Assembly: GCF_013122565.1 (NCBI RefSeq)
Contig: NZ_CP053258.1
Source of the DNA: Escherichia coli
Lineage (GTDB): Bacteria > Pseudomonadota > Gammaproteobacteria > Enterobacterales > Enterobacteriaceae
DNA: 64,000 bases
Direction: 5' to 3' (one strand)
The position numbers and the translations under genes were made by a program. How positions within the stretch are numbered: position 1 is the stretch's first letter; the number at the start of each line of letters is the position of its first letter. Under the pieces are notes generated by a model that did no database searches, was not told the DNA's origin, and saw only the letters and a list, made by a program, of their open reading frames with translations. Below, in pieces: positions 3,190-64,000 of this stretch.

Positions 3190-3375
3190 AGGGAATCTCC
3201 GAGATGCCGCCGCAGGCTGTAACCCTTGAACCCTTGGTTCAAGGTGAATGTGTCGTCGCAGTTTTAAGGCTTCTCGGACGGACCGAGCATGCTCACCAAC
3301 CGCGGAGCGCCACATTCTTGTGGTATGAAATATCGGCTCAGGGGACTGGCCCGCTTGCGAACATCTCAGAGAAAT
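3190..3375 (-). ncRNA. ssrS: 6S RNA
   Basis: plus strand carries the reverse complement of the 6S RNA sequence (5' AUUUCUCUGAGAUGUUCGCAAGCGGGCCAGUCCCCUGAGCC ... GGAGAUUCCCU 3'); immediately upstream of ygfA as in the known ssrS-ygfA operon. Confidence 0.9.
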
Positions 3376-10314: not shown

Positions 10315-13188
10315 ATGACACAGACGTTAAGCCAGCTTGAAAATAGCGGCGCTTTTATTGAACGCCATATCGGACCGGACGCCGCGCAACAGCAAGAAAT
10401 GCTGAATGCCGTTGGCGCACAATCGTTAAACGCGCTGACCGGCCAGATTGTACCGAAAGATATTCAGCTTGCGACCCCGCCGCAGGTTGGCGCACCGGCG
10501 ACCGAATACGCCGCGCTGGCGGAACTCAAGGCTATTGCCAGTCGCAATAAACGCTTCACGTCTTACATCGGCATGGGTTACACCGCCGTGCAGCTACCGC
10601 CGGTTATCCTGCGTAACATGCTGGAAAATCCGGGCTGGTATACCGCGTATACTCCGTATCAACCTGAAGTCTCCCAGGGCCGCCTTGAGGCACTGCTCAA
10701 TTTCCAGCAGGTAACGCTGGATTTAACCGGGCTGGATATGGCCTCTGCTTCTCTTCTTGACGAAGCCACCGCTGCCGCCGAAGCAATGGCGATGGCGAAA
10801 CGCGTCAGCAAACTGAAAAATGCCAACCGCTTCTTCGTGGCTTCCGATGTGCATCCGCAAACGCTGGATGTGGTACGTACTCGTGCCGAAACCTTTGGTT
10901 TTGAAGTGATTGTCGATGATGCGCAAAAAGTGCTCGACCACCAGGACGTCTTCGGCGTGCTGTTACAGCAGGTCGGCACTACTGGTGAAATTCACGACTA
11001 CACCACGCTTATTAGCGAACTGAAATCACGCAAAATTGTGGTCAGTGTCGCCGCCGATATTATGGCGCTGGTGCTGTTAACTGCGCCGGGTAAACAGGGC
11101 GCGGATATTGTCTTTGGTTCGGCGCAACGTTTCGGCGTGCCGATGGGCTACGGAGGCCCACACGCGGCATTCTTTGCGGCGAAAGATGAATACAAACGCT
11201 CAATGCCGGGCCGTATTATCGGTGTATCGAAAGATGCAGCTGGCAATACCGCACTGCGCATGGCGATGCAGACTCGCGAGCAACATATTCGTCGTGAGAA
11301 AGCGAACTCCAACATTTGTACTTCCCAGGTGCTGCTGGCAAACATCGCCAGCCTGTATGCCGTTTATCACGGCCCGGTTGGCCTGAAACGTATCGCTAAC
11401 CGCATTCACCGTCTGACCGATATCCTGGCGGCGGGCCTGCAACAAAAAGGTCTGAAACTGCGCCATGCGCACTATTTCGACACTCTGTGTGTGGAAGTGG
11501 CCGACAAGGCGGGCGTACTGGCGCGTGCCGAAGCGGCTGAAATCAACCTGCGTAGCGATATCCTGAACGCGGTTGGGATCACCCTTGATGAAACCACCAC
11601 GCGCGAAAACGTGATGCAGCTTTTCAGCGTACTGCTGGGGGATAACCACGGCCTGGACATCGACACGCTGGACAAAGACGTGGCTCACGACAGCCGCTCT
11701 ATCCAGCCTGCGATGCTGCGCGACGACGAAATCCTCACCCATCCGGTGTTTAATCGCTACCACAGCGAAACCGAAATGATGCGCTATATGCACTCGCTGG
11801 AGCGTAAAGATCTGGCGCTGAATCAGGCGATGATCCCGCTGGGTTCCTGCACTATGAAACTGAACGCCGCCGCCGAGATGATCCCCATCACCTGGCCGGA
11901 ATTTGCTGAACTGCATCCGTTCTGCCCGCCGGAGCAGGCCGAAGGTTATCAGCAGATGATTGCGCAGCTGGCTGACTGGCTGGTGAAACTGACCGGTTAC
12001 GACGCCGTTTGTATGCAGCCGAACTCTGGCGCACAGGGCGAATACGCGGGCCTGCTGGCGATTCGTCATTATCATGAAAGCCGCAACGAAGGGCATCGCG
12101 ATATCTGCCTGATCCCGGCTTCTGCGCACGGCACTAACCCTGCTTCTGCACATATGGCAGGAATGCAGGTGGTGGTTGTGGCGTGTGATAAAAACGGAAA
12201 TATCGATCTGACTGATCTGCGCGCGAAAGCCGAACAGGCAGGTGATAATCTCTCCTGCATCATGGTGACCTATCCTTCCACCCACGGTGTGTATGAAGAA
12301 ACGATCCGTGAAGTGTGTGAAGTCGTGCATCAGTTCGGCGGTCAGGTTTACCTTGATGGCGCGAACATGAACGCCCAGGTTGGCATCACCTCGCCAGGCT
12401 TTATTGGCGCGGACGTTTCGCACCTCAACCTGCATAAAACTTTCTGCATTCCGCACGGCGGTGGTGGTCCGGGTATGGGACCGATCGGCGTGAAAGCGCA
12501 TCTGGCACCGTTTGTACCGGGTCATAGCGTGGTACAAATTGAAGGCATGTTAACCCGTCAGGGCGCGGTTTCTGCGGCACCGTTCGGTAGCGCCTCTATC
12601 CTGCCAATCAGCTGGATGTACATCCGCATGATGGGCGCAGAAGGGCTGAAAAAAGCAAGCCAGGTGGCAATTCTTAACGCCAACTATATTGCCAGTCGCC
12701 TGCAGGATGCCTTCCCGGTGCTGTATACCGGTCGTGACGGTCGCGTGGCGCACGAATGTATTCTCGATATTCGTCCGTTGAAAGAAGAAACCGGCATCAG
12801 CGAGCTGGATATTGCCAAGCGCCTGATCGACTACGGTTTCCACGCGCCGACGATGTCGTTCCCGGTGGCGGGTACGCTGATGGTTGAACCGACTGAATCT
12901 GAAAGCAAAGTGGAACTGGATCGCTTTATCGACGCGATGCTGGCTATCCGCGCAGAAATTGACCAGGTGAAAGCCGGTATCTGGCCGCTGGAAGACAACC
13001 CGCTGGTGAACGCGCCGCACATTCAGAGCGAACTGGTCGCCGAGTGGGCGCATCCGTACAGCCGTGAAGTTGCGGTATTCCCGGCAGGCGTGGCAGACAA
13101 ATACTGGCCGACAGTGAAACGTCTGGATGATGTTTACGGCGACCGTAACCTGTTCTGCTCCTGCGTACCGATAAGCGAATACCAGTAA
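10315..13188 (+). CDS. gcvP: glycine dehydrogenase (decarboxylating), P protein
   Basis: 957 aa, PLP-dependent glycine decarboxylase family, [21 protein letters not shown]. Confidence 0.95.
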
Positions 13189-13210
13189 TTCACTGATTCG
13201 ACTATCTTCT

Positions 13211-13234
13211 AAAGGCGCTTCGGCGCCTTTTTAG
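13211..13234 (+). terminator. rho-independent terminator after gcvP
   Basis: aaaggcgcttcggcgccttttt hairpin with T-run. Confidence 0.65.
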
Positions 13235-13299
13235 CTTGTTAATAAAGTGCGCTTTGTGTGTCGGATGAAGCGTAAATATAAAATCCTGGAGTTCAATAT

Positions 13300-13350
13300 A
13301 TGACAGGAGCGCCAGGCCTGATGAGCGGGGCGCATCAGGCACATCGGGTA
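13300..13350. repeat. REP-like palindromic element
   Basis: gccaggcctgatgagcggggcgcatcaggc imperfect palindrome between convergent gcvP and bglA. Confidence 0.45.
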
Positions 13351-13351
13351 A

Positions 13352-14812
<1,461 letters not shown>

Positions 14813-20227: not shown

Positions 20228-21961
20228 GTGAAACAACAGATACAACTTCGTCGCCGTGAAGTCGATGAAACGGCAGACTTGCCCGCTGAATTGCCTCCCT
20301 TGCTGCGCCGTTTATACGCCAGCCGAGGAGTACGCAGTGCGCAAGAACTGGAACGCAGTGTTAAAGGTATGTTGCCCTGGCAGCAACTGAGCGGCGTCGA
20401 AAAGGCCGTTGAGATCCTTTACAACGCTTTTCGCGAAGGAACGCGGATTATTGTGGTCGGTGATTTCGACGCCGACGGTGCCACCAGCACGGCTCTAAGC
20501 GTGCTGGCGATGCGCTCGCTTGGTTGCAGCAATATCGACTACCTGGTTCCAAACCGTTTCGAAGACGGTTACGGCTTAAGCCCGGAAGTGGTCGATCAGG
20601 CCCATGCCCGTGGCGCGCAGTTAATTGTCACGGTGGATAACGGTATTTCCTCCCATGCAGGGGTTGAACACGCTCGTTCGTTGGGCATTCCGGTTATTGT
20701 TACCGATCACCATTTGCCGGGCGACACATTACCCGCGGCGGAAGCGATCATTAACCCTAACTTGCGCGACTGCAATTTCCCGTCGAAATCACTGGCAGGC
20801 GTGGGGGTGGCGTTTTATCTGATGCTGGCGCTGCGCACCTTTTTGCGCGATCAGGGCTGGTTTGATGAGCGCGGCATCGCAATTCCTAATCTGGCAGAAC
20901 TGCTGGATCTGGTCGCGCTGGGGACAGTGGCGGACGTCGTGCCGCTGGACGCTAATAATCGCATTCTGACCTGGCAGGGGATGAGTCGCATCCGTGCCGG
21001 AAAGTGCCGTCCGGGAATCAAAGCGCTGCTGGAAGTGGCGAACCGCGATGCGCAAAAACTCGCCGCCAGCGATTTAGGTTTTGCGCTGGGGCCACGTCTC
21101 AATGCTGCCGGGAGACTGGACGATATGTCCGTCGGTGTGGCGCTGTTGCTGTGCGACAACATCGGCGAAGCGCGCGTGCTGGCAAATGAACTCGATGCCC
21201 TAAACCAGACGCGAAAAGAGATCGAACAAGGAATGCAGGTTGAAGCCCTGACCCTGTGCGAGAAACTGGAGCGCAGCCGTGACACGCTACCCGGCGGGCT
21301 GGCAATGTATCACCCCGAATGGCATCAGGGCGTTGTCGGTATTCTGGCTTCGCGCATCAAAGAGCGTTTTCACCGTCCGGTTATCGCGTTTGCGCCAGCA
21401 GGTGACGGTACGCTGAAAGGTTCCGGTCGCTCCATTCAGGGGCTACATATGCGTGATGCGCTGGAGCGATTAGACACACTCTACCCCGGCATGATGCTCA
21501 AGTTTGGCGGTCATGCGATGGCGGCGGGTTTGTCGCTGGAAGAGGATAAATTCGAACTCTTTCAACAACGGTTTGGCGAGCTGGTTACTGAGTGGCTGGA
21601 CCCTTCGCTATTGCAAGGCGAAGTGGTGTCAGACGGTCCGTTAAGCCCGGCCGAAATGACCATGGAAGTGGCGCAGCTGCTGCGCGATGCTGGCCCGTGG
21701 GGGCAGATGTTCCCGGAGCCGCTGTTTGACGGTCATTTCCGTCTGCTGCAACAGCGGCTGGTGGGCGAACGTCATTTGAAAGTCATGGTCGAACCGGTCG
21801 GCGGCGGTCCGCTGCTGGATGGTATTGCTTTTAATGTCGATACCGCCCTCTGGCCGGATAACGGCGTGCGCGAAGTGCAACTGGCTTACAAGCTCGATAT
21901 CAACGAGTTTCGCGGCAACCGCAGCCTGCAAATTATCATCGACAATATCTGGCCAATTTAG
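20228..21961 (+). CDS. recJ: single-stranded-DNA-specific exonuclease RecJ
   Basis: 577 aa DHH-family phosphoesterase; GTG start at 20228. Confidence 0.95.
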   Translation: MKQQIQLRRREVDETADLPAELPPLLRRLYASRGVRSAQELERSVKGMLPWQQLSGVEKAVEILYNAFREGTRIIVVGDFDADGATSTALSVLAMRSLGCSNIDYLVPNRFEDGYGLSPEVVDQAHARGAQLIVTVDNGISSHAGVEHARSLGIPVIVTDHHLPGDTLPAAEAIINPNLRDCNFPSKSLAGVGVAFYLMLALRTFLRDQGWFDERGIAIPNLAELLDLVALGTVADVVPLDANNRILTWQGMSRIRAGKCRPGIKALLEVANRDAQKLAASDLGFALGPRLNAAGRLDDMSVGVALLLCDNIGEARVLANELDALNQTRKEIEQGMQVEALTLCEKLERSRDTLPGGLAMYHPEWHQGVVGILASRIKERFHRPVIAFAPAGDGTLKGSGRSIQGLHMRDALERLDTLYPGMMLKFGGHAMAAGLSLEEDKFELFQQRFGELVTEWLDPSLLQGEVVSDGPLSPAEMTMEVAQLLRDAGPWGQMFPEPLFDGHFRLLQQRLVGERHLKVMVEPVGGGPLLDGIAFNVDTALWPDNGVREVQLAYKLDINEFRGNRSLQIIIDNIWPI

Positions 21962-22051
21962 CGTCATCTTCTCTATAAAAAAGAGCGTGGATTGGGTACA
22001 ATCCCGCTCTTATCACCGCATTTTGACTAGCTCAATAAAAGAAATCAGACC

Positions 22052-23150
22052 ATGTTTGAAATTAATCCGGTAAATAATCGCATTCAGGACCTCACGGAAC
22101 GCTCCGACGTTCTTAGGGGGTATCTTTGACTACGACGCCAAGAAAGAGCGTCTGGAAGAAGTAAACGCCGAGCTGGAACAGCCGGATGTCTGGAACGAAC
22201 CCGAACGCGCACAGGCGCTGGGTAAAGAGCGTTCCTCCCTCGAAGCCGTTGTCGACACCCTCGACCAAATGAAGCAGGGGCTGGAAGATGTTTCTGGTCT
22301 GCTGGAACTGGCTGTAGAAGCTGACGACGAAGAAACCTTTAACGAAGCCGTTGCTGAACTCGACGCCCTGGAAGAAAAACTGGCGCAGCTTGAGTTCCGC
22401 CGTATGTTCTCTGGCGAATATGACAGCGCCGACTGCTACCTCGATATTCAGGCGGGGTCTGGCGGTACGGAAGCACAGGACTGGGCGAGCATGCTTGAGC
22501 GTATGTATCTGCGCTGGGCAGAATCGCGTGGTTTCAAAACTGAAATCATCGAAGAGTCGGAAGGTGAAGTGGCGGGTATTAAATCCGTGACGATCAAAAT
22601 CTCCGGCGATTACGCTTACGGCTGGCTGCGTACAGAAACTGGCGTTCACCGCCTGGTGCGTAAGAGCCCGTTTGACTCCGGCGGTCGTCGCCATACGTCG
22701 TTCAGCTCCGCGTTTGTTTACCCGGAAGTCGATGACGATATCGATATCGAAATCAACCCGGCGGATCTGCGCATTGACGTTTATCGCGCGTCCGGCGCGG
22801 GCGGTCAGCACGTTAACCGTACCGAATCTGCGGTGCGTATTACCCACATCCCGACCGGGATCGTGACCCAGTGCCAGAACGACCGTTCCCAGCACAAGAA
22901 CAAAGACCAGGCCATGAAGCAGATGAAAGCGAAGCTTTATGAACTGGAGATGCAGAAGAAAAATGCCGAGAAACAGGCGATGGAAGATAACAAATCCGAC
23001 ATCGGCTGGGGCAGCCAGATTCGTTCTTATGTCCTTGATGACTCCCGCATTAAAGATCTGCGCACCGGGGTAGAAACCCGCAACACGCAGGCCGTGCTGG
23101 ACGGCAGCCTGGATCAATTTATCGAAGCAAGTTTGAAAGCAGGGTTATGA
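22052..23150 (+). CDS. prfB: peptide chain release factor 2; needs a programmed +1 frameshift (join 22052..22126 and 22128..23150)
   Basis: 25-codon leader [25 protein letters not shown] ends at CUU followed by in-frame UGA; downstream +1 frame encodes RF2 with SPF and GGQ motifs. Confidence 0.9.
22113..22130 (+). promoter_or_regulatory. prfB +1 frameshift site (internal SD-like AGGGGG, then UAU CUU UGA C)
   Basis: sequence ttagggggtatctttgac matches the classical RF2 autoregulatory frameshift cassette. Confidence 0.9.
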
Positions 23151-23159
23151 GGAACCAAC

Positions 23160-24677
23160 ATGTCTGAACAACACGCACAGGGCGCTGACGCGGTAGTCGA
23201 TCTTAACAATGAACTGAAAACGCGTCGTGAGAAGCTGGCGAACCTGCGCGAGCAGGGGATTGCCTTCCCGAACGATTTCCGTCGCGATCATACCTCTGAC
23301 CAATTGCACGCAGAATTCGACGGTAAAGAGAACGAAGAACTGGAAGCGTTGAACATCGAAGTCGCCGTTGCTGGCCGCATGATGACCCGCCGTATTATGG
23401 GTAAAGCGTCTTTCGTTACCCTGCAGGATGTGGGTGGCCGCATTCAGCTGTACGTTGCCCGTGACGATCTGCCGGAAGGCGTTTACAACGAGCAGTTCAA
23501 AAAATGGGACCTCGGCGACATCCTCGGCGCGAAAGGTAAACTGTTCAAAACCAAAACCGGCGAACTGTCTATCCACTGTACCGAGCTGCGTCTACTGACC
23601 AAAGCACTGCGTCCGCTGCCGGATAAATTCCACGGCTTGCAGGATCAGGAAGCGCGCTATCGTCAGCGTTATCTGGATCTCATCTCTAACGATGAATCCC
23701 GTAACACCTTTAAAGTGCGCTCGCAGATCCTCTCTGGTATTCGCCAGTTCATGGTGAACCGCGGCTTTATGGAAGTTGAAACGCCGATGATGCAGGTGAT
23801 CCCTGGCGGTGCCGCTGCGCGTCCGTTTATCACCCACCATAACGCGCTGGATCTCGACATGTACCTGCGTATCGCGCCGGAACTGTACCTCAAGCGTCTG
23901 GTGGTCGGTGGCTTCGAGCGTGTATTCGAAATCAACCGTAACTTCCGTAACGAAGGTATCTCCGTACGTCATAACCCAGAGTTCACCATGATGGAACTCT
24001 ATATGGCTTACGCAGATTACAAAGATCTGATTGAGCTGACCGAATCGCTGTTCCGTACTCTGGCACAGGATATTCTCGGTAAGACGGAAGTGACCTACGG
24101 CGACGTGACGCTGGACTTCGGTAAACCGTTCGAAAAACTAACCATGCGTGAAGCGATCAAGAAATATCGCCCGGAAACCGACATGGCGGATCTGGACAAC
24201 TTCGACTCTGCGAAAGCGATTGCTGAATCTATCGGTATCCACGTTGAGAAGAGCTGGGGTCTGGGCCGTATCGTTACCGAGATCTTCGAAGAAGTGGCAG
24301 AAGCACATCTGATTCAGCCGACCTTCATTACTGAATATCCGGCAGAAGTTTCTCCGTTGGCGCGTCGTAACGACGTTAACCCGGAAATCACAGACCGCTT
24401 TGAGTTCTTCATTGGTGGTCGTGAAATCGGTAACGGCTTTAGCGAGCTGAATGACGCGGAAGATCAGGCGCAGCGCTTCCTGGATCAGGTTGCCGCGAAA
24501 GATGCAGGTGACGACGAAGCGATGTTCTACGATGAAGATTACGTCACCGCACTGGAACATGGCTTACCGCCGACAGCAGGTCTGGGGATTGGCATCGACC
24601 GTATGGTAATGCTGTTCACCAACAGCCATACCATCCGCGACGTTATTCTGTTCCCGGCGATGCGTCCGGTGAAATAA
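23160..24677 (+). CDS. lysS: lysyl-tRNA synthetase (constitutive)
   Basis: 505 aa class II aaRS with N-terminal OB anticodon-binding domain; 9 nt after the prfB stop. Confidence 0.95.
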
Positions 24678-24695: not shown

Positions 24696-24724
24696 AACCC
24701 CGGCAAATGTCGGGGTTTTTTATT
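24696..24724 (+). terminator. rho-independent terminator after lysS
   Basis: hairpin aaccccggcaaatgtcggggtt followed by a T-run; overlaps the idi stop codon. Confidence 0.65.
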
Positions 24725-45719: not shown

Positions 45720-45770
45720 ATGAAAATGGCCGGATGGTATTACCCACCCGGCCTGAGACTGATGACAAAC

Positions 45771-45877
45771 GCCGAATTGCCTGATGGACTACGCTTATCA
45801 GGCCTACAAGTGCATTGCAATCTATTGAATTTACGATGTTTTGTAGGCCGGATAAGGCGCTCGCGCCGCATCCGGCA
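45771..45877. repeat. REP / BIME cluster
   Basis: two inverted REP palindromes (gcctgatggactacgcttatcaggcctac and gtaggccggataaggcgctcgcgccgcatccggca) between convergent yqeB and yqeA. Confidence 0.6.
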
Positions 45878-45938
45878 TCAACAAAGCGCGTTTTGTTAAC
45901 AATCTTTAACCGGATGGCGTATCCATCCGGCCTTTAAA

Positions 45939-59272: not shown

Positions 59273-59346
59273 GCGGGCGTAGTTCAATGGTAGAACGAGA
59301 GCTTCCCAAGCTCTATACGAGGGTTCGATTCCCTTCGCCCGCTCCA
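59273..59346 (+). tRNA. glyU: tRNA-Gly (anticodon CCC)
   Basis: 74 nt cloverleaf GCGGGCGUAGUUCAAUGGUAGAACGAGAGCUUCCCAAGCUCUAUACGAGGGUUCGAUUCCCUUCGCCCGCUCCA; encoded CCA. Confidence 0.95.
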
Positions 59347-59579
59347 ATTTATCTTCACCTCATCAACCTGCCATTTTTGTTGTATCTGATTTTCTATATT
59401 ATCTTAATTCAATCGGTTCAGACTTTTCGCAATCGCCGTAATACTTCCCCATTTTTTTGTAAATAAAAAGCGATTACGCAATGCAATCCTTTTGTAACAA
59501 TCCAGGTAAAATACCTTATTTTCAAGTTGTTAAATAAGTGGTTATCTACGCTTTTAACAAACGATTGATGGAATATTTT

Positions 59580-61190
59580 ATGAAAGGGAAATCTGCATTA
59601 ACTCTTCTGCTCGCTGGTATATTTTCATGCGGCACCTGCCAGGCGACAGGGGCAGAAGTGACGAGTGAATCTGTATTTAACATTCTTAATTCCACGGGGG
59701 CAGCAACAGATAAAAGTTATTTATCGTTAAATCCAGATAAGTATCCTAATTATCGTCTTCTGATTCACTCAGCCAAATTAAAAAATGAAATAAAGAGCCA
59801 CTATTCCAAAGACGAAATTCAAGGATTGTTAACATTAACAGAAAATACACGAAAGTTAACGTTGACGGAGAAACCCTGGGGAACATTTATTCTTGCTTCT
59901 ACTTTCGAAGATGACAAAACAGCGGCAGAAACCCACTATGATGCTGTCTGGCTGAGGGATAGTTTATGGGGCTATATGGCCTTAGTATCAGATCAGGGAA
60001 ATAGTGTAGCCGCAAAAAAGGTTCTGCTCACCCTGTGGGATTATATGTCTACGCCCGACCAGATTAAGCGGATGCAGGACGTCATTAGCAACCCAAAACG
60101 ACTGGATGGAATTCCTGGGCAAATGAATGCTGTGCATATCCGATTTGACAGCAACTCCCCCGTGATGGCGGATGTGCAGGAAGAAGGCAAGCCGCAGCTG
60201 TGGAACCATAAACAAAATGATGCGTTAGGTCTTTATCTTGATCTCCTTATACAAGCAATCGACACTGGTACTATTAACGCTGAAGATTGGCAAAAAGGTG
60301 ACCGATTAAAATCGGTTGCGCTGCTGATTGCTTATCTGGATAAAGCCAATTTCTATGTTATGGAAGATTCCGGAGCGTGGGAAGAAGATGCCAGATTAAA
60401 CACATCTTCCGTTGCACTGGTGACCTCTGGACTGGAACGTTTGTCGAACTTACTCTCGAAGAAAGACTCTGTTTTTGTCTCTGATTTACTACGTGAAGCT
60501 AAAGCCAATGAACTGGATGAACCTCTTTCAACAACGAGGTTGAACCACCTCATAGATAAAGGTTATGAAAGAATAACGTTACAGCTTGATTTAGGGGGAG
60601 AATCCCCAGGTTATCTGGAAAAAGATAAACATTACAGAGAAGCCGATGCGGCTTTACTTAATGTTATTTATCCTGCAAATCTTTCAAAGATAAACACCAG
60701 AAGAAAAGAGCAAGTTCTAAAAATAGTTAAAAAACTAGCAGGTCCGTATGGTATAAAAAGATACGAGAAGGATAATTATCAGTCGGCAAATTTTTGGTTC
60801 AATGATATTAAAACCGATACCGATCAAAATTCGCATGCAAAAAGAGAAAAGAGCTTCATTCCATCAACAGAAGCAGAATGGTTTTTTGACTCATGGTATG
60901 CAAAATCAGCAGCAATTGTTTATAAAGAATCAAGAAAAGAAGAGTATTTGAATGACTCAGTGCAATTTATGAATAGATCATTGGCCCAAATAACAGGCGA
61001 GAATATGATTGGTGCAAATGGCAGGAGTGTACCTGAAATGGCACTTCCCGAAAGCTATAACTATATCCACAAGTCGGGAACTTTGCATGAAGCGCCAAGC
61101 CCTATCATTCCGCTAAATTGGTCGAAAGCATCAATGACTCTCATGTTGAAAGAGATGTCCAACCTTATCAATGATGAGGGAAATAAATAG
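59580..61190 (+). CDS. secreted glycoside hydrolase family 15-like protein (glucoamylase / glucodextranase fold)
   Basis: signal peptide MKGKSALTLLLAGIFSCGTCQA; GH15-type motifs WLRDS and EDSGAWEED; start uncertain (GTG 59538, ATG 59568 or ATG 59580). Confidence 0.7.
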   Translation: MKGKSALTLLLAGIFSCGTCQATGAEVTSESVFNILNSTGAATDKSYLSLNPDKYPNYRLLIHSAKLKNEIKSHYSKDEIQGLLTLTENTRKLTLTEKPWGTFILASTFEDDKTAAETHYDAVWLRDSLWGYMALVSDQGNSVAAKKVLLTLWDYMSTPDQIKRMQDVISNPKRLDGIPGQMNAVHIRFDSNSPVMADVQEEGKPQLWNHKQNDALGLYLDLLIQAIDTGTINAEDWQKGDRLKSVALLIAYLDKANFYVMEDSGAWEEDARLNTSSVALVTSGLERLSNLLSKKDSVFVSDLLREAKANELDEPLSTTRLNHLIDKGYERITLQLDLGGESPGYLEKDKHYREADAALLNVIYPANLSKINTRRKEQVLKIVKKLAGPYGIKRYEKDNYQSANFWFNDIKTDTDQNSHAKREKSFIPSTEAEWFFDSWYAKSAAIVYKESRKEEYLNDSVQFMNRSLAQITGENMIGANGRSVPEMALPESYNYIHKSGTLHEAPSPIIPLNWSKASMTLMLKEMSNLINDEGNK

Positions 61191-61256
61191 TTTTCATAAT
61201 GAGGCGGTCCTGGATTAAAAGGACCGCTCAAAGAGAAATCGAAAGGGGAGGTAAAA

Positions 61257-61436
61257 GTGATCAATAAATTACTGTTAGCTTACCTGATAGGTCTGGTTGT
61301 GACATCGACTTTAATATTTATCTTCTCGGAAGAAAAAGTAACATATCGGTTGTTTGCTGCAATAATTACAGGTTTAACCTGGCCGCTTAGTCTCATTCCT
61401 TCCATTATAAGTCTCATGATTCGTAAATCCGACTAA
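61257..61436 (+). CDS. hypothetical small membrane protein (59 aa, two predicted TM helices)
   Basis: GTG start with strong RBS aaggggagg 5 nt upstream; two hydrophobic stretches (LLLAYLIGLVVTSTLIFIF, LFAAIITGLTWPLSLIPSIISLMI); absent from the ORF track because of the non-ATG start. Confidence 0.4.
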   Translation: MINKLLLAYLIGLVVTSTLIFIFSEEKVTYRLFAAIITGLTWPLSLIPSIISLMIRKSD

Positions 61437-61781
61437 CAAGAAAATTATATGATCGATTAAGAAAAATAGAATCGAACAGGAGAATAAAATATATGCGGGG
61501 AGTAACAAAACACTCGCAGTGCGTTAATGAAGAACTAACAAATATGATTTGTATTGAAAATAGTTACCAAACAAGTGTTATAAGAAATACGAGGTGTGTT
61601 TAAGTAAAGCATATCAACAGTTACAAATCTGTATATGGACAGGATGACGTACAAGTGTAAGTGGCTGATAGCTATTCGCTCATAACAAAATCATTATTTT
61701 ATAAATAGGAATCATCACTTTTTAATCATGTTTTTATAGCAATTTTATGGAGAATGAGAATATGGAATAAGGAGATGAAAC

Positions 61782-62531
61782 ATGATTGAAGAAGGGCTGT
61801 TACTTCCAATGAATGTTTTGCTTCAAGGACAGAAGTTAACCCTACTGGACCCTGAAATGTGGTTCTTACGGGGAAATGAAAACAAGGATGTAACCCTTGT
61901 TATTACGATCGGTAATAACCATCAAAAATTAATGGTAGTGGAAGATATATTACTGCTCATTGACCGAAGCCAAATTGAGGTAACGGCAGGGAAAGTAATT
62001 TATCATCCACTTCGCATTGATATCCTGAGTAAATTATTAGCTTTTATAGATGAATCAACGGGGAGTGTGGAAAGGGAGCACCATGAGTTGTTTGCTGATG
62101 CCTTGCCCTTTGCATCAGAAGTTGTGCTATTCAGTAAAGTTGCTAGTGAAGCCTGGTTTTTAGCCACTTATCTGAGCAGCGATAATATTAATGAAGTTCT
62201 GTTTCAGCATCTAAGAAAAACAGAATGCTATAAACTGGTTCGCTATTTATTATCGCAATCGCTTATACAGACTTCACTCTATGATCTTGGAGAGCTTTAC
62301 GGCGTATCGTATTCACATTTTCGCCGTTTATGTAGTTATGCATTGGGTGGTAAAGTTAAAACGGAATTATGTGGCTGGAGAGTTGCCAGAGCCGTGTTGG
62401 AAATCATTGAAGGAAACAGTGATATGACAACTATTGCGCATAAATATGGCTACTCTTCCTCATCACACTTTTCAGCCGAAGTAAAAAGCCGGTTAGGAAA
62501 AACACCGAGAGAACTATGTAAAAAGCTATGA
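61782..62531 (+). CDS. eivF: AraC-family transcriptional activator, InvF-like (ETT2 type III secretion regulator)
   Basis: 249 aa; C-terminal AraC HTH (GVSYSHFRRLCSYALGGKVKTEL...YGYSSSSHFS) closely parallels Salmonella InvF; RBS aaggag. Confidence 0.8.
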   Translation: MIEEGLLLPMNVLLQGQKLTLLDPEMWFLRGNENKDVTLVITIGNNHQKLMVVEDILLLIDRSQIEVTAGKVIYHPLRIDILSKLLAFIDESTGSVEREHHELFADALPFASEVVLFSKVASEAWFLATYLSSDNINEVLFQHLRKTECYKLVRYLLSQSLIQTSLYDLGELYGVSYSHFRRLCSYALGGKVKTELCGWRVARAVLEIIEGNSDMTTIAHKYGYSSSSHFSAEVKSRLGKTPRELCKKL

Positions 62532-64000
62532 AAATAAAAATACGCATTACTATTATATTAATTTCAGTCTTATGCATTTTTAATGGATTATCGACTCCTG
62601 GTGCATATGCCGCAGCAGCGAATGGATACGTAGCAAATAAAGAAAATCTACGTAGTTTTTTTGAAACGGTTTCATCATATGCGGGTAAGCCTACAATAGT
62701 TAGTAAGCTTGCCATGAAGAAACAGATCAGCGGAAATTTTGATTTAACAGAACCCTATGCCTTGATTGAACGCCTGTCGGCACAGATGGGGCTTATTTGG
62801 TATGATGATGGCAAAGCTATTTATATCTATGACTCATCAGAGATGCGTAATGCATTGATTAATCTGAGAAAGGTATCGACGAATGAGTTTAATAATTTCT
62901 TAAAAAAATCGGGTCTGTATAACTCTCGTTATGAAATTAAAGGGGGCGGCAATGGTACTTTCTATGTATCGGGGCCACCGGTTTATGTTGACCTGGTCGT
63001 TAATGCTGCGAAATTAATGGAGCAAAACAGCGATGGCATTGAGATCGGTCGAAATAAAGTAGGAATAATTCATCTGGTCAACACATTCGTTAATGACCGG
63101 ACTTATGAGTTACGTGGCGAAAAGATAGTTATTCCTGGCATGGCAAAAGTACTATCGACGTTGTTAAATAATAACATTAAGCAAAGCACAGGGGTGAACG
63201 TACTTTCTGAAATTTCAAGTCGTCAACAACTAAAAAACGTATCACGTATGCCTCCTTTTCCTGGGGCTGAAGAAGATGATGACCTACAAGTAGAGAAAAT
63301 AATATCGACAGCAGGAGCGCCAGAGACTGACGATATACAAATTATTGCATATCCTGATACCAACAGTTTACTTGTTAAAGGAACAGTATCTCAGGTTGAT
63401 TTTATCGAGAAGTTAGTAGCTACGCTTGATATTCCAAAGCGACACATTGAATTATCTTTATGGATAATAGATATTGATAAGACTGATCTAGAACAGCTAG
63501 GTGCTGACTGGTCGGGCACGATAAAAATTGGATCCAGCTTAAGTGCATCATTTAATAATTCAGGTTCAATTAGTACCCTTGATGGGACACAGTTTATTGC
63601 AACAATACAGGCACTTGCACAAAAAAGAAGAGCCGCCGTTGTTGCTCGTCCCGTCGTTTTAACACAGGAGAATATTCCTGCTATATTTGATAATAACCGC
63701 ACTTTCTATACTAAATTAGTCGGCGAGCGTACTGCGGAATTGGATGAAGTAACCTATGGTACGATGATTAGCGTGCTACCACGATTTGCTGCGCGAAATC
63801 AAATTGAATTACTCTTGAATATTGAAGATGGAAATGAAATCAATTCCGACAAGACCAATGTTGATGATCTGCCTCAGGTTGGTAGAACACTTATAAGTAC
63901 TATTGCACGCGTGCCCCAAGGGAAAAGTCTTTTGATTGGGGGATATACACGCGATACGAATACCTATGAAAGTCGCAAGATCCCAATATTAGGCAGCATT
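62528..64000 (+). CDS. eivG: type III secretion system secretin, InvG/YscC family; 3' end beyond the window
   Basis: open frame from the ATG at 62528 to the window end, hand-translated; signal peptide, then near-colinear similarity to InvG (FYVSGPPVYVD, IIAYPDTNSLLVKGT, RPVVLTQENIPAIFDNNRTFYTKL, GRTLISTIARVPQGKSLLIGGYTRD). Confidence 0.85.
   Translation, partial: MKIKIRITIILISVLCIFNGLSTPGAYAAAANGYVANKENLRSFFETVSSYAGKPTIVSKLAMKKQISGNFDLTEPYALIERLSAQMGLIWYDDGKAIYIYDSSEMRNALINLRKVSTNEFNNFLKKSGLYNSRYEIKGGGNGTFYVSGPPVYVDLVVNAAKLMEQNSDGIEIGRNKVGIIHLVNTFVNDRTYELRGEKIVIPGMAKVLSTLLNNNIKQSTGVNVLSEISSRQQLKNVSRMPPFPGAEEDDDLQVEKIISTAGAPETDDIQIIAYPDTNSLLVKGTVSQVDFIEKLVATLDIPKRHIELSLWIIDIDKTDLEQLGADWSGTIKIGSSLSASFNNSGSISTLDGTQFIATIQALAQKRRAAVVARPVVLTQENIPAIFDNNRTFYTKLVGERTAELDEVTYGTMISVLPRFAARNQIELLLNIEDGNEINSDKTNVDDLPQVGRTLISTIARVPQGKSLLIGGYTRDTNTYESRKIPILGSI

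Follow-up and report, generated by a model that had tools for sequence, protein, structure and literature searches.

The reading frame of prfB, the gene for RF2 (peptide chain release factor 2), is interrupted after 25 codons in the stretch of Escherichia coli DNA analyzed here (64,000 nucleotides, hereafter the window), and the locus raises the question of whether this interruption is a programmed recoding site, damage to the gene or to its sequence, or the boundary between two separate cistrons. We consider it almost certain that this is the chromosomal E. coli prfB gene and that RF2 is made from it via a +1 programmed ribosomal frameshift of the classical autoregulatory kind. This answer draws on the anatomy of the sequence, the switch of frame within the homology, the identity of the product to an annotated RF2, and the conservation of the site both in E. 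coli and in other species, all of which were observed directly in this work; no finding spoke directly against it. The prfB recoding site of the window is an already known, textbook arrangement that is intact, as was to be expected; its importance is limited to annotation and it raises no new biological questions.

Reading frames and the RF2 product

In the zero frame, translation from the ATG at 22052 on the plus strand gives a 25-aa ORF (22052..22129) that is closed by an in-frame TGA at 22127-22129, and the coding part of this ORF (22052..22126, codons 1-25) aligns with residues 1-25 of RF2. According to the original prediction, the frame producing full-length RF2 resumes at +1, and this was borne out by translation and alignment: the +1 frame, entered with GAC at 22128, encodes 340 aa and has no internal stop before the TGA at 23148-23150, and this plus-strand segment (22128..23150, codons 26-365 and the stop) carries the SPF and GGQ motifs as well as Ala246. 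When the two segments were translated as a join (22052..22126, 22128..23150), which had been proposed as a check, the product was a protein of 365 aa that aligned with RF2 without gaps and without any compensating indel. We take this join to be the complete prfB gene on the basis of its translation, its matches to NCBIfam and Pfam models, its alignment to PDB entries, and its identity to a RefSeq protein, as described below.

A continuous in-frame ORF, which had been named as the observation that would speak against a frameshift, was absent; the zero frame (22052-23149) contains many more stops beyond the one at codon 26. Continuous prfB sequences do occur in the records of other strains, and frameshift-independent prfB genes are found in approximately 36% of bacterial species (PMC12421855), but nothing in the window points to such an allele, in which autoregulation would be absent. 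With the zero-frame stop at codon 26, the many stops after it, and T22127 in place, direct reading of the sequence rejects a frameshift-independent allele, and the probability that we assign to it is negligible.

The mechanical ORF list reports RF2 as an N-terminally truncated ORF of 293 aa (22269..23150, plus strand), exactly as had been stated. The nearest stop on the 5' side in the +1 frame is at 22071-22073, and the ATG at 22269, which corresponds to Met73 of RF2, is the first start-like codon thereafter, which is why the ORF finder truncates prfB at this position. Both the 25-aa and the 293-aa ORFs appear in the list, and they could be taken as two independent cistrons, a small ORF followed by a shorter RF2 that is separately initiated at ATG 22269. 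However, the RF2 homology in the +1 frame starts at 22128, from the codon that overlaps the stop, so that it reaches residue 26 at a point 47 codons 5' of ATG 22269, where no usable start codon is available, and there are no start-like codons between 22074 and 22269. Furthermore, the 25-aa ORF also shows homology to RF2 (residues 1-25), a single stretch of homology crosses the junction between the frames, and initiation at ATG 22269 would leave out residues 1-72 and with them the start of the PCRF domain match. Because the homology spans the junction and a start codon is absent, the existence of two cistrons was rejected as exceedingly improbable, and the 293-aa ORF is considered an artefact that does not represent a separate gene. 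Gene callers that are unaware of recoding give a 25-aa ORF and a truncated 293-aa ORF in place of the correct product, the 365-aa join.

The identity of the joined protein was assessed with several family models. It scored 525.9 bits on the NCBIfam model TIGR00020 (prfB, cutoff 370) in one stretch that covers residues 12-362 and crosses the frame junction, and only 304-306 bits on the models for RF1, under their cutoffs of 400 and 423. The Pfam domains PCRF (PF03462) and RF-1 (PF00472) were matched at residues 31-219 and 228-337, respectively, and the SPF tripeptide for stop-codon recognition and the catalytic GGQ motif are found at residues 205-207 and 250-252. The protein also aligned without gaps, residues 1-365 against residues 1-365, with the E. 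coli RF2 structures 1GQE and 1ML5, differing from each by one substitution, and it is thereby collinear over its full length with experimentally characterized E. coli RF2. In the case of 1ML5, which has the K-12-type sequence, the sole difference is Ala246 in the window instead of Thr246. Ala246 is the canonical form outside K-12 and marks a non-K-12 lineage with a fully active RF2. RefSeq WP_001701073.1 (of NZ_CP061764), an Ala246 protein of the "RF2-B" type, has the identical sequence, and no functionally relevant differences from this non-K-12 RF2 were detected.

The frameshift cassette and its conservation

The break in the frame falls on a set of adjacent sequence elements on the plus strand. 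Read directly from the window and indexed by script, the sequence at 22115-22130 is AGGGGG-TAT-CTT-TGA-C, and every part of the cassette that had been claimed, an internal Shine-Dalgarno (SD)-like AGGGGG, a slippery CUU, an in-frame UGA and a following C, was located where it had been placed. The purine-rich SD-like element (22115..22120) ends 3 nt 5' of the slippery codon, and the spacer TAT (22121..22123), which is the Tyr24 codon, provides the spacing described in the literature. The Leu25 codon CTT directly precedes the stop and, together with the T of the stop, makes up the slippery CTTT (22124..22127), on which, in the mechanism given in the literature, the tRNA-Leu in the P site shifts its pairing from CUU to UUU. 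The premature TGA (22127..22129) lies early in the gene, at codon 26, and is an RF2-specific stop through which the level of RF2 would be sensed; the C at 22130 places it in the context UGAC, which the literature describes as weak for termination. These features agree with a published survey of 12,753 species genomes, 64% of which have a premature stop in prfB, and in which the consensus is AGGGGG (reported for 8,164 genomes), with CTTT three nucleotides past it, the stop TGA (never TAG), and then C (PMC12421855).

The 16-mer AGGGGGTATCTTTGAC occurs once in the 64-kb window, and none of 100 shuffled sequences had a match to it even when 2 mismatches were permitted. The degenerate pattern AGGGGGNNNCTTTGAC with at most 1 mismatch is likewise found in the window at this site alone, and matches to it were present in 8 of 100 shuffles. 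The strongest argument against a chance occurrence is the position of the motif, which is exactly where the RF2 homology changes frame.

The arrangement is shared by nearly all E. coli. Of 5426 complete E. coli genomes, 5425 contain a single match to a 1401-nt query around prfB, with a top identity of 99.7%, and the 109 nt around the site were at least 99% identical in 5422 of the genomes. With a 34-nt query (22105-22138), the 22-nt core was found to be exact in 5419 of the 5426, since the 28-nt exact word that was required in megablast obliges positions 22111-22132 to be exact in each match. The common variant within the 34-nt query falls outside the cassette, as for instance in strain A33, in which the Tyr27 codon TAC is changed to TAT. 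One of the 5426 genomes had no match to prfB at all, and in another the only copy was on a record labelled as a plasmid; both are probably oddities of assembly or labelling.

Strain 730V1 (NZ_CP061764) was the best match. Its homologous CDS is annotated as prfB, as a join of two pieces with the note "programmed frameshift", and lies in the order recJ-prfB-lysS, followed by idi on the opposite strand. The two prfB genes align base for base with only two differences, at 22274 and 22997, both of which are synonymous, because the translated joins are identical. The prfB gene of E. coli K-12, the original example of a gene with a programmed +1 frameshift, also has the cassette AGGGGG TAT CTT TGA C, its position at codon 26, the 365-aa product, and the order recJ-prfB-lysS in common with the window, and K-12 J53 is 100% identical to it over the 109 nt around the site.

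This conservation bears on the possibility that prfB is a pseudogene here, its frame broken by an inactivating mutation, or that it was read incorrectly, the break having arisen in the TTT run during sequencing or assembly. A short homopolymer read with one base too many is a typical class of error, and sequence records do disagree at this site, since those of two O157:H7 strains, SS52 and SS17, deviate by exactly this T. However, the form with the extra T predominates, as the exact core in 5419 of the 5426 genomes indicates, the break coincides with a complete cassette of SD-like element, CUU, UGA and C, and the same arrangement recurs across phyla and is treated in published surveys as normal for prfB (PMC12421855). 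Since the extra T and the complete cassette are conserved almost universally, we rejected a pseudogene or a sequencing error and regard either as extremely unlikely.

The records of SS52 and SS17 came to light with a synthetic query from which the T had been deleted, which was used to look for in-frame prfB alleles. Both are RefSeq records of O157:H7 "supershedder" strains, and both match the T-deleted query at 100%, reading CTTGAC where the T of the slippery run is missing; all remaining matched genomes have the T-containing form. The T-less prfB is located at 3792963-3794060 of NZ_CP010304.1 in SS52 (1173-2270 of our extracted locus L125) and at approximately 3830515-3830609 of NZ_CP008805.1 in SS17. 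In SS52 the gene is annotated as a continuous CDS of 1098 nt, whose protein is WP_001701073.1, the same as in the window. The T-less prfB in these two records may represent a frameshift-independent allele that exists in nature, or else an artefact of assembly or finishing. Frameshift-independent prfB genes, such as those of the Actinomycetota and Mycoplasmatota and of the SS17 and SS52 records, encode the same protein family as the gene described here; however, they have a continuous ORF, which in SS17 and SS52 goes along with the absence of the T from the slippery run, and the window does not belong to this type.

When TAGGGGGNNNCTTTGAC was scanned over a genome collection of 100,044 species, at least 120 loci were obtained, and for each of them the +1 frame was translated from GAC and compared with the RF2 of the window. 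In at least 97 loci (97 of the 120 listed), RF2 homology in the +1 frame started at query residue 1, which corresponds to RF2 residue 26; the identity among these 97 listed loci was 23-98%, the lowest values coming from loci that are cut off at the locus end. Gammaproteobacteria, Bacillota and Gemmatimonadota, among others, are represented in the matches listed. Three more of the 120 listed loci end early but have RF2-like upstream ORFs that end in RGSL or RGYL. The other 20 of the 120 listed loci were discarded as chance matches; RF2 is absent downstream of them, their spacers vary, and most are GC-rich (for example, a locus of Rhodococcus, L010). Because the RF2 homology in these 97 loci starts at residue 26, the cassette appears to be bound to one exact position in one gene family.

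The prfB sites of other bacteria have the SD-like element, the 3-nt spacing, CTTT, TGA and C as in the window. Among the matches listed, the spacer of nearly all RF2-confirmed loci is TAT, TAC, TCT or TCC. This codon differs between groups: Gammaproteobacteria have a Tyr codon (TAT or TAC) and Bacillota a Ser codon (TCT or TCC), and the upstream ORF accordingly ends in RGYL or RGSL. In Psychrobacillus sp. NEAU-3TGS (L050, NZ_JAPNOZ010000012.1), TAGGGGGTCTCTTTGAC is present together with an RF2-like upstream ORF, and the +1 frame is open for 30 codons only, which is possibly due to a disruption of prfB or to an assembly error.

Proposed regulation and local RNA context

The mechanism that would operate at this site has been worked out in published studies of E. 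coli (PMC12421855, introduction). Translation would initiate at ATG 22052 and proceed through 25 codons, after which CUU (Leu25) would occupy the P site and UGA the A site, so that termination by RF2 would compete with slippage of the tRNA-Leu on CUU. When RF2 is plentiful, it would recognize the weak UGA, with its C in the next position, and the 25-aa peptide would be released. When RF2 is scarce, the ribosome would pause at UGA, the AGGGGG located 3 nt 5' would pair with 16S rRNA at its anti-SD tail, and the peptidyl-tRNA-Leu would slip from CUU to UUU; GAC (Asp26) would then be read in the +1 frame, leading to the full-length RF2 of 365 aa. The net effect would be a negative feedback by which RF2 limits its own synthesis. 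From published E. coli experiments on the identical sequence, we infer that the slippage, the contribution of the SD-like element, and the feedback apply to the window as well, and with an intact cassette the strain is likely to keep normal RF2 autoregulation. The 64-kb window contains no 16S rRNA gene, and the 16S rRNA of E. coli is expected to offer an accessible anti-SD (CCUCC) to the SD-like element.

The extent of frameshifting may depend on the RF2 variant. It has been reported that the Thr246 RF2 of K-12 is an unusual and less active variant, that the Ala246 form terminates at UGA more efficiently, and that ribosome profiling in vivo gave frameshifting of approximately 28% with K-12 RF2 (Thr246) and approximately 21% with RF2-B (Ala246) (PMC5373646). 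By inference from Ala246, the set-point of frameshifting in the strain analyzed here should resemble that of E. coli B RF2.

Local mRNA structure could be a further influence. In the predicted fold, CCUC at 22090-22093 pairs with GGGG of the SD-like element (22116-22119) and closes a hairpin at 22096-22113, and such a structure might modulate the access of the anti-SD and, together with the more active Ala246 RF2, tune the set-point of frameshifting. We consider this very improbable. The fold of 22090-22190 is not significantly better than those of shuffled sequences (z -1.73), and the sequence of the predicted hairpin region is common to essentially all E. coli and is thus not specific to the window. 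A structured RNA stimulator was rejected on account of this z value and the absence of an Rfam match. The Rfam search at a permissive E-value over 21000-24000 returned no match, a result that is uninformative for the cassette itself, which is a linear, unstructured motif without a curated family. At the gathering thresholds, the whole window gave matches only to 6S RNA, two Sib RNAs, and one tRNA.

The upstream neighbor of prfB is recJ (20228..21961, plus strand), as identified from the ORF list and from the homologous RefSeq locus. The 90-nt spacer between recJ and prfB folds with an MFE of -22.1 kcal/mol (z -3.44), and it includes a predicted stem-loop at 21981..22011 that is terminator-like on the minus strand; the stem-loop has an A-run on its 5' side, and no minus-strand gene runs into it. 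A simple scan detected no sigma-70-like promoter site in this spacer. Downstream, lysS (23160..24677, plus strand) starts 9 nt past the prfB stop with no terminator in between, and in the scan for promoters and terminators the only terminator-like hairpin on the plus strand is at 24696-24717, after lysS. Judging from the sequence, the short distance to lysS and the position of this hairpin are consistent with co-transcription of prfB and lysS but do not prove it.

Other features of the window

Three pieces of the window were compared with the 5426 complete E. coli genomes, and none of them was 100% identical to any genome; the best identities were 99.7% for 21900-23300, 99.1% for 12900-13700, and 98.8% for 59347-64000. 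The lack of a 100% match for the tested pieces suggests that the source is an E. coli-like lineage that has no exact representative in the 5426-genome collection.

Two tandem copies of the Sib antitoxin RNA (RF00113) are located on the minus strand at 2000-2150 and 2393-2543, with scores of 133.8 and 132.8 bits, near 6S RNA (3192-3375). Because 730V1 has a single unit, as indicated by overlapping blast segments, the window has a tandem duplication of the sib/ibs type I toxin-antitoxin unit. At the junction between gcvP and bglA (approximately 13234-13332), ygfF is missing, and approximately 100 bp takes the place of approximately 1 kb of 730V1, in which ygfF is a frameshifted pseudogene. The junction without ygfF was found at a query coverage of at least 80% in 2370 of 5425 genomes, and therefore it is a common presence/absence polymorphism.

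The match to 730V1 ends past the tRNA-Gly(CCC) gene glyU (59273-59346), where 730V1 has an integrase and IS1. In the window, the sequence past the tRNA (within 59273-64000) matches the beginning of the ETT2 type III secretion island in its O157:H7-type form, with genes for a GH15-family protein (550-aa ORF, 59538-61190), sctC, eivF, and a GhoT/OrtT toxin; this stretch was covered to at least 80% in only 982 genomes. A short break in collinearity with 730V1 is also present at 45769-45910, between yqeB and arcC, where the blast segments overlap by approximately 40 nt in 730V1 and approximately 140 nt of the window are unmatched, which is possibly due to a small repeat or a REP-type indel.
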